Below are positions 5,071 through 17,000 of a stretch of DNA of 64,000 nucleotides, one piece after another. The stretch lies in contig OX597820.1 of assembly GCA_951406725.2 (NCBI GenBank), positions 33,728,001-33,792,000 on the forward strand, given 5' to 3'. The notes beneath the pieces are model-generated. The model was not told where the DNA came from. It was given only the letters and a program-made list of their open reading frames with translations, and did no database searches. Positions within the stretch are counted from its first letter, which is position 1. The number at the start of each line of letters is the position of its first letter. The position numbers and the translations under genes are program-made. The DNA is from Octopus vulgaris. Lineage: Eukaryota.

Positions 5071-5544
5071 AGAGTAAACCAATTCATACGGACCATCCTC
5101 ACTACTCACCCTCCTTTCAAGAAAAATACCGGGTGAGGAGGTGCGTAGGATTTCCCCCTCTCTTACTCTCCTTTTCAAGCGAAACTTTAAAAAGTCGAAG
5201 AACGAATTAAATAATACACGTTATAAATTTTATCGCAACACGTTGACGTCCCTTGTATATAAGTTTATGCAGAGTAGCCTCCCCTGTCACCCCATTTTCA
5301 AATTTAACTTTATTCATGCCACATTAAATAAGGCAGTAACCGACTGGAAATTTTTAAAACAGAGATAAAAGCTATTATTAGGAATATATATATATTGGTA
5401 AAAACGGTAAGAAAACAAAAGAAAGAAAGAGACATCAATATTATGTAAATAGAGGAAATTTATCTGTAAAATATGTGACAATTATTCAATAGCCAAGATA
5501 AAACTCTGGATGCCGAGGTGGAAATCCACAACACCATCACTCTT

Positions 5545-5571
5545 TATATAATATATATATAAATATATATG

Positions 5572-5611
<40 letters not shown>

Positions 5612-5850
5612 CATACATATATACATACATACATATATATATGTATATATACATATATATATGTATATATATACATATATATACATACATACATATATAT
5701 ATGTATATATACATATATATATGTATATATATACATATATATATGTATATATATACATATATATATGTATATATATACATATATATATATGTATACATAT
5801 ACATATATATATGTATACATATACATATATATATATGTATATATATATAA
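5545..5850. repeat. (TA)/(TACA)/(TATG) compound microsatellite
   Basis: Seen directly. It is the source of the spurious YIYI ORFs here. Confidence 0.95.
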
Positions 5851-5949
5851 ATGGAGTTGAACGAAGATGTTAACAAAATTCCTTTACTCTCGACATATGT
5901 TTCGAAAACAACATGGTTTTATTCCAAAGAAATAAACGGTGTAAGATGC

Positions 5950-6635
5950 AATCTTTATAAATATATTACTAAATTATTTTTTTTAGTTATCTTAAATATC
6001 ATAAGTTGTATCGGAAACAGTTTCTTGCTTTTCTGAAACATTTTATAATTAAAAAATAAACTGTGTCCTTGTGATATGAAAAGCGAAGCGTCCTCTGTTT
6101 TTAGAAAATATGAAAATAGAATTTTACTTTGAGTCAACACTATACTAAAAGTAGCAGTCAAATCTGCATTGTTTTTTTAAAAAAGGGGGAAGGACACATT
6201 AAATAATATGATCCTAATGGAAACATTTTTGCTCGTAGATCTGCTTTCTCAGGACTGGATCCCAATTATTAAATATAAGAAACGGTGAAGATGTATATTT
6301 TGAGTGCCAAAAGAGTTGTCTCTGTGTTTATTGGTTTTTAGACAAACAGCTAGTAATTTCGCTTAGGCCTGTATCATTTAGAAAGTAAAAGAAACAGTAA
6401 CATGGTGTTAAAGGCATAACAGTTCAGTGCTTCACCCTGACTATTTTCTTTATGTGTTTCTTAATAATACATATTTTTTTAATGAAACCTTGTAACGACG
6501 CCTTTTCAAAGGTGAAGATGACAATTCTCAGCTTTCACATGAGGCAGCCCGTGTTCGATTCGCAGCATGGAAACTTATTTATAGGTACAGCATGATTAAA
6601 CAGTTAAGAAGCTCATTTTGCAAATCTGAGAAGAA
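5950..6635. repeat. Diverged third copy of the U2 far-upstream region
   Basis: Collinear direct similarity to about 11288-11980 and inverted similarity to about 42500-43200. No U2 body next to it. Confidence 0.8.
6520..6573 (+). pseudogene. tRNA-Glu(TTC)-like relic (3' two-thirds)
   Basis: ATTCTCAGCTTTCACATGAGGCAGCCCGTGTTCGATTCGCAGCATGGAAA resembles the anticodon arm, T arm and 3' acceptor strand of animal tRNA-Glu (CTTTCAC loop, GTTCGATTC). The D-arm is not recognisable. Confidence 0.55.
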
Positions 6636-7780: not shown

Positions 7781-9233
7781 TTACTATTTTTTTTGCCCGA
7801 TTCATAATGACCAAAACAGAATTCTTTTGTTTTGGGAGGGGTTGTTGTCTGGAGTTGATAGGGTTGCACTGTTGAATATGGCATTAGTATATGATTTGCG
7901 GCTGTTGATTTTATAGTAGATATCTGGTTGACTTCTGAGTTTTGATGAAAGTCTGAACCAACACTGCCACTATAAGAGATGTCTTTCCTGTGGATCTGGT
8001 GGTGGTTTGAAGCCGTGATTTTACTAGTGCATCGAGTCCCTGGAGGATGAGTAAATGGGAATAGGAAAAAGTTTAGGATTCCGGGTTACATGTGCAGAAG
8101 TTATTAAGTGTGATTTAACATTTAATAGTGGTGTTGTTAAGCTGTGTGGTTTGACATTGGCTGGTATTGTTTGTATGAATTGTGCATCTTGTCCGAAGTA
8201 AATGGGTGAAGCTACAGTCACTGCACATGCATGGTCTCTCATGTTGAGAATAGCGGCATATTTGGGGTTCATAATTTTACTTTATTTAAAGTTAGCAAAT
8301 TTATCGTAGAGTGGACAGGTATAGATTCAGATTGAGGTGGATAGTGGTGGGGGTGTGGTTCTTCACTAATTGGAGTAGTAGCAGTAGAATAAGATGACAA
8401 TGGTGCTGATAGATCTCTTGTGTTATTCTGAGAAGAATTTGAATGGCCTGACAGTAGAGAAGAGCTAGAGATTGTGCTGTTTAATAATAGGTCATCAATT
8501 GTTCTAGTATTGAAGAATGACTGCCAATACTGATCTTATTGTTTAGTTGTGGTAAGGGTAATAGCAGTAGAACATAATGACAACGATGGATCACTTGTGG
8601 TATTTCAAGGAAATGAGAAAGTGGATAACTACACAGTGAAGGGCTCTTGATTGTGGAGTTTAATAGTTTATCAATTGTGGTAGTATTGAGGAGTGGCCGT
8701 GGTTGTTATATTATAATTCAATTTTTTTATGTTGAGGATGCTTTAGTTCAGTAATATATATTTGTAGGGATTTTCTTTTGAATTTATTTTTTCTAAGCCT
8801 GGGAAAGGTAAGTAGGGGGTTCAATACTGAAATTTGTACCCCACAAAATTTCAAGAGGTGCATCACTTGTTCCTGAGCCCTTGTGTGTGACACGTTTTGG
8901 CCATTATTTCTAGGAATTGAGTGACCATATTATAGTTGTTTTGTAATTTTGCATGTTAATCTATGCACCAAATCTCCATCTTAAATGTTTCTGAGCAGCA
9001 TAAGCTGGGTTAGAGAGTAGAGGCCAGTAGTAAACTGGCACTTTACAATAATGACCCCGAAAATATGAGAAGTAAAGTTCCCCCTCATTGATATTTGAAT
9101 GAAAACTCGTCATAGTCAGGTTATTTGACATGATAGTCACCAAACACAAAATTGTGAGTCTGTAAATAAACCCCTCAGAGAAGAGAGGTAATCAATTGTC
9201 TGTTTTTGGATTAATTTTATCTCCCTAGTGGGA

Positions 9234-9421
9234 GATGGGGTTGAATCCTGGAAGTACTGCTATACCAGGCCAACCCGTGGCAAAGGCGGAGCAAGCCCCT
9301 AACTCTTCGCCTCGTTCTAAAAATCAGTTTAATATCGATGGTCCCAAATAGGGACCATATCAGATATTAAGCTAAGAACATATACTACACTTTGATCTTA
9401 GCCAAAAGGCCGAGAAGCGAT
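9234..9421 (-). pseudogene. U2: U2 snRNA copy, damaged and cut off from its promoter by an insertion
   Basis: Reverse complement begins ATCGCTTCTCGGCCTTTTGGCTAAGATCAAAGTGTAGTA. Versus 43499-43688 it has a C>A just after the branch-site pairing region, a 3-nt deletion in stem IIa and 3'-end changes. Confidence 0.9.
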
Positions 9422-9424
9422 AAC

Positions 9425-11000
9425 GAAATCTTTATTATAGGCACGATGGCCCAAAAAATAGAGGGGACGATACAAAAACGGGACGTGGGGTACATAGAAT
9501 AAAATAAAATATGCATAATGAATTATATGGAATGTTTACAAGGCCCCCAAAACTCGTAAAATCATTTAAAATACAGTTCTGTTATACTGGGCGTTCATCT
9601 GTAATGTAATCTAATATTTCTTCCTGCTCTATTATTGCAGGCAAACCGTCATATCGAACATATTGCATTATACAAACAGTTGAAAAAACACTTTTCAATT
9701 TTAAAAATGTCTCTTTTTCTATTATCGCCGACTTTACTTTATCATCAAATATTTCTGGGTTTAGCCTAACTCTTATTAACCCTTTCTTACCTGCCAGTCT
9801 TTTTTCTATTTCTTTATCTTTCATGTATAAAATTACTACCTTGAGATTATTTCCTACTGGTCTTCTTCCTTCTTTACATGCTTTTAACTTCTCTGACACT
9901 TTCCTTTTCCATTTTTGGTCTATCGATGAATGTTCCGGTTCTATCTCTATCTCTTTTATTCTCTTATCTTCGTACATACTATCATCCTTTTCCTCTATAG
10001 TCTTATTTTTCGTTTTTTGAGCTGTAGTTGGTGATTCCACCCTCGCTCTTTTTCTATATTCTTTTCCATCTGTTTTTTTCTTTTTCTTTATCCAACTCTT
10101 CACCACTTTCTGTGTTTACACATTCTACCTTTTCCGTTTGCACTATATCTGTCTTGTTCAATGTTCTAGTCGGACATGCATCTTTCATGTGACCTCTTAT
10201 TTTGCACTTGTAGCACACTGGTGGTCTCCCCTCCACCATGACTCTCAGTAGAGTCTCATCGGGGAAAACTAACTCCTCTGGGATTTTATACAGATCAGGT
10301 ATGGTTATATGAATCAATACCTGCACTGCATAACCCCACCATTGTACATCTTTGGATTTTTTAACATTTAAAATTTCTACATTTTCTTTGCAGTTAAAAA
10401 CAACTGCTGCTAATATTCTTTCCATTTTTAGTTCTGGTGAAATTTTACTAATTCTTATTCTAACTGCTCTTTTCCCACGATAACTAGGTAATAATATCCA
10501 TTTTTCTGATTTTAATATTTGCATAGCGTTCTTCGCTTTTAAAATGGACGACAACTGTTGCATATTTTCTACCTCTGTTATAGAAGGTAGGTTCTCCTTC
10601 AAGTTTCTGCAGACAACATTCAATCTCCGCAATTTCTGCCAATTCTATTTTCTTTGAATGTACCTTCCATGTTCGGTATGTTATTATACGTTCAGCTTCT
10701 TTAGCTTCTTCTTCAGGTGGTGTAATCCTTACACAATCACCTTCTCTTTTTAAGCTGTCGAAGTAATTCTTTAAAATATCATTTTCTATTGTGACGTCTT
10801 CCAACTGTATTTCGTTTGTAGTTAATTCCTTGCTTGCCGCTCTTGCGTATGTTTGGGTTTGCATTTTGTGAAGAAGAAAAATTCCTCAACACCGCAAACA
10901 CTTCCAATAAATCATTCGAACTCTCACCACCGCCACTCAATATTAACGTAATCAATTCTCCGACACCAAAATAAGCAAAGCAAGGCCGGAAACACGTGCT
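9425..11000 (-). mobile_element. ORF1-only (HAL1-like) L1/Tx1-type non-LTR retroelement inserted at the U2 start
   Basis: Absent from the paralogous locus at 43483-43495. About 135-nt 5' UTR, a frameshifted ORF1 with a CX2CX4HX4C knuckle, a short 3' UTR with AATAAA, and no endonuclease or RT motifs. Confidence 0.75.
9582..10864 (-). pseudogene. Gag-like/ORF1 protein with CCHC zinc knuckle (two frameshifts)
   Basis: ORFs 10484-10864, 10054-10632 and 9582-10106 join into about 430 aa: N-terminal TYARAA motif, RVMVEGRPPVCYKCKIRGHMKDACP, then a basic/acidic linker, as in L1/Tx1 ORF1. Confidence 0.7.
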
Positions 11001-11867
11001 CATAGAGGTATCTATACACACTTCACTTTTGTACACTGACTGATTTAGCATTAATATTATTCGTATATATTTAATTAGTTCTTCTATGTATTGTAATATC
11101 CTTTATTTTATTTCACATTAGCTGTTTTATTTAATCCTTTCACTCTGAGAGTTTTACTATTTCTATTTTTTCTTATGATATTATCCTAAACGTAATCTGT
11201 AATTATGTTAATTTGATAATAAAGGTGAATGGAAAATACGAATTACGACGGTCAGGTGCGTAATGTCCACGTGACTATTCTCACCACTCTTTATAAAAAT
11301 TTTACTAAATTAATTATTTTTTTAGTTATCATAAATCTCATAAGTCGTATCGGAAACATTTTCTTGCTTTTCTGATATATTTTATAATTAAAAAAAATAA
11401 TAAACTTCGCCCTTGTGATATGAAAAATGAAGCATTCTCTTTCCTTACGGAGTTGTCACTCCTAATTGTGAGTCAATACTATGTGGTTATTCAAACCGCT
11501 AAAAGTAGCAGTCAAATCTGCATTGTGTTAAAGAAAAGAAAAAAAGGATACATTAAATAATCTGATCCTAATAGAAACATTTTTGCTCGTAGATCAGCTT
11601 TCACAGGACTGGCATTAAATGTAAGAAACGTTGAAGACGTATATTTTGAGTACCAAAAGAGTTCTCTCTGTGTTTATTGGTTTTTAAACAAACAGCTAGT
11701 AATTTCGCATAGGCTTATATCATTTAGAAAGTAAAAGAAATAATAACATGGAGTTAAAGGCATCACAACAGTTCAGTGCTTCACCTCGACTTAGTTTCGT
11801 CTTGTGTTTCTCAGTATATATTTTTTAATGAAATCTTGTAACGACACGTTTTCAAAGGAACAAATGA

Positions 11868-14659: not shown

Positions 14660-17000
14660 CCACAACATAGACTGATAGTTAGTGACTTTAGGATCAGGAC
14701 TAAGAGGACGACTAGAAGATGACCAACATGGAGAAGAAGGGTCTGGAAGCTTAAAGATCCTGCGAATGGACAGAGATTTAGAGACATGTTACTTGAAGCC
14801 TTTGACAAAATAGAAGGGGGTATAGCTACACATAGGGTAGAAGACAACTGGACGCTTCTAAGGGACAACCTGCTGAAAGCCACTGACCAGATCTGTGGCT
14901 GGTGCAAAGTCCCCTCAAGACCCAAAATAACATGGTGGTGGAACAATATTGTTGACAGGGCTATTAGACAAAAGAAACAGGCTTGGAAGGACTGGAAGAA
15001 CGGTGGTAGCAGGGAAGTGTACCAGACTACCAGAAGGGAAGCTAGGAGGCAGGTGTATTTAGCCAGAGGGGAAGCAGATAAGAAAAAATTTGCCAATGTT
15101 CTGCGCCGTGAGGATTAAAGACTTGAGGTATTTCGTGTTGCAAGACAGTGTGTGAGAGAGAATCGTGACTTGGTAGGAGAGAAATGTTTTCACAAGGATG
15201 ACGGTTCACTTGCGCTAAATGAGGATGCAAACAGAGAGGTTTGGAGACGCCACTATGAAAGGTTGCTGAATGAGGAAAATGAATGGGATAAAGAGAGTCT
15301 GCCGAATGTCGACCCAACAGAGGGACCAGCAATCCAAGTTGATAGTTCCTTAAGGGAAAGCCCCAGGCCCATCAGGAATTACTGCAGAGATGCTCAAAAT
15401 ATCTGGTAGTGTAGGCTATAGCCTAGTCACCCGTATAGTTAACCAGGTGATACACGAAGGAGTCATTCCCAATGACTGGTGTAGCAGCATAATAGTCAAC
15501 TGCTACAAAGGTAAAGGTGACGCCCTAGATACAAATAACTACAGGGGTATCAAGCTACTGGATCAGGTAATGAAGGTTACGGAGAGGGTTATAGCCCAAC
15601 TAATTAGAGAGAGAGTTAGCTTAGATGAGATGCAGTTTGGGTTCGTGCCAGGGAAAAGTACTACTGATGCTATATTCCTGGTAAGACGGCTGCAGGAGAA
15701 ATACCTAGCCAAAGATAAGCCCCTGTACCTGGCTTTTGTTGGCATGGAGAAAGCCTTGGTCAATGAGGAAACTAGGGATAGATGAATGGTTAGTGAGAGC
15801 TGTGCGAGTCATGTACAGAGATGCTGCTAGTAAGGTGAGGGTTGGCAACGAGTACAGTGAAGAATTCCGGGTAGAGGTTGGGGTCCACCAAGGTTCAGTC
15901 CTCAGTCCCCTCCTATTTATCATAGTCCTCCAGGCAATAATGGAGGAATTCAAGACAGGATGCCCCTGGGAGCTCCTCTATGCTGATGACCTTGCTCTAA
16001 TTACTGAGTCACTATCAGAACTGGAGGAGAAGTTTCAGGTGTGGAAACAAGGATTAGAATCGAAGGGCCTTAGAGTCAATCTAGCTAAAACCAAAGTCGT
16101 AATCAGTAGGAAGGTAGACAAATCACAAACGCCTTCAGGTAGATGGCCCTGCTCGATCTGTAGAAAAGGTGTAGGTAGAAACTCTATAAGGTGCACCAAG
16201 TGAAAGCTATGGACACATAAGAGGTGCAGCAATGTCAAAGGAAGGCTAACTAGGAAAATAGTTTTTGTCTGCGGCAGATGCTCAGGAGCAATAAACACTG
16301 AAAATGTGCAGAGACCAACTTCTACCACGTTCCAGGGAGAAAAACTAGAAGTAGTTGATAGCTTCCGCTACCTAGGTGACCAAGTCAGTAGCAGGGGTGG
16401 GTGTGCTGAAAGTGTAACTGCTAGAGTAAGAATAGCCTGGGCAAAGTTCAGAGAGTTCTTACCCCTGCTGGTGATAAAAGGCCTCTCGCTCAGAGTAAAA
16501 GGCAGACTGTATGATGCATGTGTACGAACAGCCATGCTACATGGTAGTGAAACATGGGCTGTGACTGCTGAGGATATGCGTAAGCTCGCAAGAAATGAAG
16601 CCAGTATGCTCCGATGGATGTGTAATGTCAGTGTTCATAATCGACAGAGTATAAGTGCCTTGAGAGAAAAGTTGGACCTAAGAAGCATCAGTTGTGGTGT
16701 GCAAGAGAGACGTTTGCGCTGGTATGGTCATGTGACGAGAATGGCTGAAGATAGTTGTGTGCAAAAGTGCCACACCCTAGCGGTTGAGGGAACCTGTGGA
16801 AGAGGTAGACCTAGGAAAACTTGGGACGAGGTGGTGAAGCACGGCCTTCGAACTTTAGGTCTCACCAAGGAAATGACTAGAGACCGAGACCTATGGAAGT
16901 ATGCTGTGCATGAAAAGACCCGGCAAGACTAGTGAGACCATAACCCGTGGCCTCTACCTGGTATGTAGCCAGTCGACTTATACATACCTTTCCTTCTTGG
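14660..17000 (+). mobile_element. RTE-clade LINE, 5'-truncated, frameshifted RT
   Basis: NYRGIKLL, QFGFVPGKSTTDAIF, GVHQGSVLSPLLF, LLYADDL, FRYLGD, RRLRWYGHV, GRGRPRKTW. Confidence 0.95.

Follow-up and report, generated by a model that had tools for sequence, protein, structure and literature searches.

The window, a 64,000-nt stretch of the Octopus vulgaris genome, contains two U2 snRNA genes, which were located with Rfam at 9231-9421 on the reverse strand (RF00004, 158.5 bits) and at 43499-43692 on the forward strand (184.7 bits). The latter is an intact paralog. Both genes reside in an inverted duplication (about 6.9-12.2 kb vs 42.3-45.8 kb), in which the flanks of the two U2 loci share 93–97% identity and the match breaks at 9425-11000. 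Beyond the break lies a U2 promoter region (11001..11300, reverse strand), which is 94% identical to the region upstream of the intact paralog and carries a PSE-like motif (11044-11039, reverse strand); the gene at 9231-9421 is split from this promoter, its own. Additionally, the distal U2 promoter region recurs at 5949-6632 (79% identity), in a third copy that lacks the proximal part and the gene, and a TA microsatellite occupies 5540-5850.

The break is filled by an insert co-oriented with U2, whose 3' junction corresponds to U2 position -3. A sequence-only reading of this DNA had recognised the insert, its orientation and this junction correctly, but not its 5' boundary. An empty U2 locus (L039/L236) matched the promoter side at 94% identity over 1.3–1.5 kb and the match continued through 10995, indicating that the six bases at 10995..11000 (reverse strand), found at the same position there, are host DNA. 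The earlier proposal that the insert had replaced 13 nt was based on the wrong empty paralog, L039/L236 being the better match. The reported absence of a target-site duplication is also doubtful for this copy, as the segment at 10984..10992 (reverse strand) matches U2 +6..+14 at 7 of 9 bases and is likely a partly deleted, decayed upstream copy of such a duplication. The element proper thus measures ~1.56 kb (10983-9425). If the start lay as far from the PSE as in the paralog (-60), transcription would begin near 10984.

Reading along the reverse strand, we identified a T-rich 5' UTR (10865..10983) that can be aligned to the 5' ends of further family copies, an ORF1 (9582..10864; ATG at 10864, stop at 9582), and a 3' UTR of 157 nt (9425..9581) with AATAAA at 9436 and no poly(A). 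The ORF1, which reaches ~430 aa in intact copies, encodes a CX2CX4HX4C zinc knuckle (10171..10218), which matched Pfam PF00098 (zf-CCHC) below the cut-off (E 0.0015). The 3' UTR terminates in ATAATAAAGA (9438-9429), a 10-mer common to the autonomous partner described below, followed by a 4-nt spacer. The frame of the window copy is broken twice, by the loss of 14 nt near 10534 and by a shift of one base near 10085-10098. A 1453-nt contig from an independent run (X9) covers both sites with only in-frame indels, and this agreement indicates that the frameshifts are not assembly errors. No APE or RT frame was found across the three forward translations of the insert. The sequence-only description of a ~430-aa ORF1-like frame with two frameshifts and a CCHC motif, a 3' UTR of ~155 nt with AATAAA, and no APE or RT was therefore accurate.

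Relative to its paralog, the window U2 gene (9231-9421) has a 3-nt deletion and six substitutions. None of the 30 listed U2 loci carries an indel, and their substitutions range from 0 to 9. The window copy has probably silenced its U2 gene and is itself probably a dead end. Three presumed RNA runs, each of a different study, yielded contigs only in 9507-10959, which ended at 10959, 10931 (an adapter end), and 10709; the same runs gave no contig over 10960-11800, where one DNA run continued. Given the differing ends and the guessed RNA status, we give these contigs no weight as evidence of expression. The expression look-up listed no RNA record as holder of the sequence. The window copy would have been transcribed from the U2 promoter. 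Elsewhere in the genome, a 29-bp insertion with a 17-bp duplication (L203, G000:C1:45503536) is identical to the 3' end of the window copy and shares the next five bases of its junction, so that the window copy or an allele of it may be the donor. Within the window, open frames of 242–294 aa at 16204-16929 (forward strand) and 55072-54200 (reverse strand) resemble fragments of other LINEs, and a further frame at 26662-25781 (reverse strand) falls in the same length range.

We searched the genome (2.8 Gb in 227 contigs) for related copies. The insert DNA gave 57 matches from 40 scored candidates (64–92% identity), a 24-nt pattern of the 3' end gave 67 exact matches (control, 0), and the C-terminal ORF1 domain gave 150 scored matches among 976 candidates. 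Full-length copies measure ~1.6–1.7 kb between their duplications, with a spacing of 1.6–1.9 kb in tandems, and ORF2 was absent from them. Seven ORF1s, spanning 392–463 aa, are intact. The median dN/dS among these (21 pairs) was 0.12 in the N-terminal part, 0.49 in the linker, and 0.28 in the C-terminal part, with dS near saturation (0.6–2.5 in the pairs printed). By these substitution ratios, purifying selection acts on ORF1. The 3' ends, the protein matches, and dN/dS together describe an independent multi-copy family with a functional ORF1, as in HAL1-type elements, and bear out the earlier notion of a non-autonomous ORF1-only family.

The ORF1 is predicted to comprise two RRM-like domains, a CCHC knuckle, a low-complexity linker, and a conserved C-terminal α/β domain. 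Its AlphaFold model (pLDDT 57.6) weakly matched tandem RRM proteins (best E 0.003), and a PDB sequence search returned weak zinc-knuckle matches alone. In the ESM Atlas, the N-terminal part fell with CCHC and ZCCHC3-RBD clusters at 0.88–0.92, which serves as a lead only, and nothing matched the C-terminal part. The model of the C-terminal domain (pLDDT 69.7) showed weak ferredoxin-like matches (E 0.06 or worse), and BLASTP found no match between this domain and the partner ORF1. No homolog of ORF1 was found at E 0.001 among 8000 candidates of 243–776 aa, no Rfam family matched 20 family loci at the gathering score, and Pfam Transposase_22 did not match at E up to 1. The proposed likeness to HAL1 consequently holds for the ORF1-only, multi-copy organization but not for the protein, which shows zf-CCHC only and is not an L1-type ORF1. 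We also observed long head-to-tail stacks of distinct ORF1-only families at L265, L266, L267, L274, and L275 (e.g., G000:C4:26043001-26053000), each unit ~1.75 kb and 28–58% identical to the window ORF1. The stacks at L267 and L274 end in an autonomous APE-RT LINE, 51–57% identical to the partner at U2.

The 67 exact 3' ends revealed where the family inserts. Forty-eight adjoin the start of a hammerhead repeat, which we describe as retrozyme-like; one, the window copy, adjoins U2; and 18 lie elsewhere, 14 of these in truncated copies. A full hammerhead core was present at 31 of the 48 sites and a decayed one at 6, and the remaining 11 have the head followed by another element. Controls gave the core pattern only 3 times in 3350 shuffles and 3 times in 1800 genomic windows. 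In 12 chosen heads, stems I and II covary, with double changes in 13 of 13 pairs, 91.7% paired (0 of 500 shuffles), and the targets thus display the type I hammerhead with covarying stems by which retrozymes are recognised. Rfam HH9 was detected at one of eight loci (L156), below the cut-off (E 1.3e-5). When four retrozyme heads were folded as single strands, three gave folds no stronger than those of shuffles. A duplication, mostly of 13–20 bp, was called in 28 of the 48 copies, so the absence of duplications is not a rule of the family. Eleven copies marked as 5'-truncated by BLAST coverage also stand at retrozyme starts (e.g., L139, 116 bp with a 17-bp duplication), and the pattern therefore does not merely reflect the survival of expressed copies.

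A pattern joining the 3' end to the U2 start matched six places genome-wide, namely the window copy and five insertions of a different element. This element is a 5.6-kb APE-RT LINE, the autonomous partner with a common end for which a search had been proposed. Four of the five U2-start copies are 5.57-kb LINEs, and the duplication around the partner at U2 is clean and extends to U2 +14. The suggestion that insertion occurs at the U2 start and not in the gene body was thus supported by both the window junction and the reuse of the site by five partner insertions. These are very young copies, nested among retrozyme-site copies that are 97–99% identical. A truncated relative of the partner (88%) lies at a U1 start, and a second one lies at a U1-like head in the same cluster. 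In U2 tandem clusters at G000:C3:20770001-20840000 and C23:43300001-43330000, the partner occupies the start of five units, and two of these form a tandem pair. In a separate setting, more than ten partner-type 3' ends adjoin another recurring sequence that starts with T- and A-runs (e.g., G000:C29:19860304, C18:66949479, C28:3624361).

The partner ORF2 contains RVT_1, Exo_endo_phos, and zf-RVT domains (Pfam). With a CCHC ORF1, an ORF2 carrying APE, RT, and a C-terminal zinc motif, and a preference for particular targets, the partner has the features of the Tx1 clade. We take it to be Tx1-like from this architecture and general knowledge of the clade rather than from a tree with named elements. 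The 120 RT homologs listed bear no clade names, and the nearest named match was in Argonauta hians (64%). The partner and family ORF1s are 27–31% identical over the N-terminal 250 aa, and no DNA similarity was found between the two elements beyond the shared 10-nt 3' end, which rules out a single internal deletion of the present partner as the origin of the family. A 15-nt end of the partner matched 184 times (control, 16). Partner and ORF1-only copies also form tandem pairs at retrozyme starts (L077, L078, L079, L085), resembling the tandem arrays of HeT-A and TART. The shared 3' 10-mer, the shared sites, and the tandem pairs suggest that the partner likely mobilises the ORF1-only family in trans.

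We then weighed the original proposal, that the ORF1-only family is specific for the U2 start. The window copy and the five partner insertions agree with it, as does the copy L002, which lies in a microsatellite but bears an 11-nt U2 head and shares a 100/100 clade with the window copy; L002 likely derives from an earlier U2-resident master. However, U2 accounts for one of 67 family ends, retrozyme starts are the main target, and of the other four members of the window copy's clade, one stands at a retrozyme, one in a microsatellite, and two at sites unrelated to these. Among the 150 C-terminal-domain matches, a single one was adjacent to U1 or U2, by place tables of the listed genes. The proposal is largely refuted, and we give it very little credence. 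The expectation of recurrent junctions at snRNA starts was partly realised, since start-site junctions recur and the partner occurs at U1 and U2, but U2 is rare for the ORF1-only family.

The targets share a geometry. A PSE-like motif was found at -57..-61 in 27 of 30 U2 loci and at -56..-59 in all 30 U1 loci (57 of 60 together). At retrozymes, where +1 was placed by spacing, we examined 22 non-tandem sites with upstream DNA, dropping five tandem sites and one without flank. The best PSE-profile match fell at -53..-60 of the duplication in 20 of these 22 sites (12% for a random position), which stem from ~8 related subfamilies and are not independent. The profile scores at retrozymes (-0.5 to 12) were mostly below those of U1/U2 (11–18). 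An snRNA-type promoter has been reported for newt satellite 2. That insertions keep a fixed distance from the PSE whether at retrozymes, U1, or U2, and that they occur at both U1 and U2 starts, could reflect tethering to SNAPc, in which the particle binds the snRNA-promoter complex and inserts ~57 bp downstream. Ty3 uses TFIIIB in a comparable manner. We consider this improbable, because related subfamilies insert below TATA boxes without a PSE match (L029, L243, L245, L254), hardly any of the U1 and U2 loci examined are occupied (0 of 30 and 2 of 30, respectively), and tethering leaves the fidelity of subfamilies unexplained.

A TATA pattern at -36..-20 was present at 11 of 23 retrozyme sites. 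Among full-length non-retrozyme sites with a called duplication it occurred in 7 of 9, compared with 209 of 3000 random sites and 0 of 5 truncated off-target copies; five promoter families are represented, one of them doubtful, and the duplication of L242 is unreliable. A TATA match was absent at L018 and L011. Twenty further C-terminal-domain matches were examined, some lying at retrozymes and others 26–36 bp below a TATA without a PSE match. At L248, L249, and L251, the stack begins ~30 bp below a TATAAA within decayed ORF1-like sequence, and this TATA class may be incidental, being inside decayed coding sequence. The TATA-linked targets include an LTR-like repeat of ~1.1 kb with CCAAT boxes and a TATA, which is entered at four loci ~31 bp below the TATA (L246/L258, L254/L261, L257/L269, L244/L270/L271; related, L029/L260). 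The L258 copy of this repeat lies inside a Ty3/gypsy-type element, recognised by Pfam RVT_1, RNase H, and protease.

A target head of foreign origin separates the duplication from the element in three copies or groups, namely L207, L002, and the partner insertions at U2 (random 45-mers, 1 of 150). L207 bears the head of another retrozyme, and the partner copies at U2 bear a retrozyme head. Such foreign heads are as predicted by transcription from the host +1. At the 3' side, L025 and L150 each follow a partner copy whose 4-nt tail they duplicate, and the same tail is found in L028 at a place where the host has different bases, which suggests read-through. Subfamilies are also faithful to their targets: the nearest relative lies in the matching target cluster in 33 of 44 cases (15% expected), the clusters being of similar age (91–97% within). 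As kin share labels, a particular partner or ORF1 with which each subfamily pairs could account for this fidelity. Inheritance of the donor flank at off-target junctions gave a borderline result, with a mean of 2.8 vs 2.2 nt (n=15, p 0.055). A long junction in common with the top relative was seen in only one of six cases (L029, 7 nt), and the window copy shared 3 nt only.

The nearest retrozyme-site relatives of the window copy (L003/L200, 89%) and of the partner (L218-L220, 97–99%) occupy one common retrozyme subfamily. Among 48 heads compared with U2 -3..+16, that of this subfamily shares the top rank (11/19, run of 6). An alternative explanation is ordinary Tx1-type specificity, in which each partner endonuclease reads a short retrozyme-head sequence that U1 and U2 happen to resemble, and the use of promoters is a side effect. 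In keeping with it, the U2 insertions come from the most U2-like head, an A at position 5 is kept in 10 of 15 off-target junctions, partner subfamilies are likewise sorted by target, and in known cases the endonuclease mainly sets target choice, as described in sections of PMC4494074. Against it, the duplicated heads vary widely (9 clusters), unrelated TATA promoters are entered at an equal offset, and very young partner copies (97–99% identical) lie on three different heads. We regard this explanation as rather unlikely, though less so than tethering.

Instead, we favor, as the probable reading, an ORF1-only LINE family that is likely trans-mobilised by the end-sharing 5.6-kb APE-RT LINE, both inserting co-oriented at the predicted starts of multi-copy host or parasitic units, likely because neither has a promoter of its own. 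The host promoter would start the RNA at the host +1, and the transcript would open with the duplicated head and run past the 3' end of the element into the target. The partner ORF2 would nick the template strand 0–7 bp upstream of +1, favoring open start sites, and the read-through tail might pair with the nicked strand, holding each subfamily to its own target. U2 would have been reached from the lineage in the retrozyme subfamily with the most U2-like head, and selection may keep ORF1 because it packages its own RNA. Counting against this reading are the 18 of 67 ends found elsewhere, the lower PSE-profile scores at retrozymes, the borderline flank result, and the rarity of shared long junctions. 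A broader version, which is possible but which we advance only tentatively, is that this promoterless lineage, autonomous and ORF1-only alike, recognises the RNA polymerase II start site itself, be it set by a PSE or a TATA box, and chooses among such sites by its read-through RNA tail, a switchable target memory. Precedents for flank dependence and flank transcription are described in sections of the literature, in that R1Bm requires downstream target sequence (PMC7265360) and R2 is co-transcribed with its own target (PMC4494074).

Several known systems share parts of this arrangement. HAL1, HeT-A, and Ag-Sponge, from the L1, Jockey, and CR1 clades, are non-autonomous LINEs that encode only ORF1 (PMC5786205, PMC5753468), and the examples given in the sections available of these two articles include no Tx1-derived case. 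Like them, the octopus family has only ORF1, its own subfamilies, selection on ORF1, and a probable dependence on an autonomous LINE. Unlike them, it has an RRM and CCHC ORF1 (type I in the scheme outlined in PMC4120745), a Tx1-like partner, no poly(A) in the main subfamilies, and start-site specificity; L1-clade descent and an L1-type ORF1, which define HAL1 strictly, were not found. Keno (Tx1 clade) and Utopia (RLE) are U2-specific, autonomous, and cut 37 nt inside U2 (PMC4640811, PMC6136364, in the parts consulted). The co-oriented and sometimes tandem insertion in U2 genes is similar, whereas the junction lies at -3 in the window and at about -7 to -1 for the partner, U2 is a minor target, and the insert lacks Keno's U2 specificity, a junction 37 nt inside U2, and its own endonuclease and RT.

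The closest system appears to be Tx1L, which inserts in Tx1D, and Tx1-Mar, which inserts in Mariner-N4 with the passenger SINEU, for which flank-driven transcription has been proposed (sections of PMC4494074). There, too, a Tx1-type LINE targets another repeat and a non-autonomous passenger uses the common target. The differences are that the octopus targets are predicted starts of hammerhead repeats, snRNA genes, and TATA promoters, and that the passenger codes for protein. Metazoan non-LTR retrozymes consist of short units, arranged in tandem or dispersed, that contain a type I hammerhead (PMC7229834, in part), and neither Tx1 nor octopus nor an snRNA promoter came up in a term search of the main text of that article. 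Here, the retrozymes are the landing site and no part of the element; self-cleavage and circular RNA are traits of known retrozymes, to which the octopus repeats are likened by sequence. In the literature accessible to us in part, we found no LINE at snRNA or retrozyme start sites and no ORF1-only Tx1 derivative, and Repbase, subscription papers, and supplements (e.g., the repeat library of PMC13282606) could include the family.

Known target-specific LINEs cut within the bodies of rRNA genes, snRNA genes, or repeats. Insertion at +1 would hand a promoterless element a strong promoter, at a cost to the host, whose U1 and U2 genes are severed from their promoters. It would also explain how RNA-gene heads are added to retroelements, a matter related to the open question of SINEU transcription (PMC4494074, in part). 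Two aspects appear new: TATA promoters without a PSE are among the targets, and the subfamilies of an element without an endonuclease stay true to their targets. Because the ORF1-only element has no endonuclease, this fidelity offers a natural experiment on the contribution of RNA flanks, as opposed to the enzyme alone, to LINE targeting. If start-site recognition with an RNA-set memory is true, the lineage would represent a retargetable system that places cargo at the +1 of a chosen promoter.
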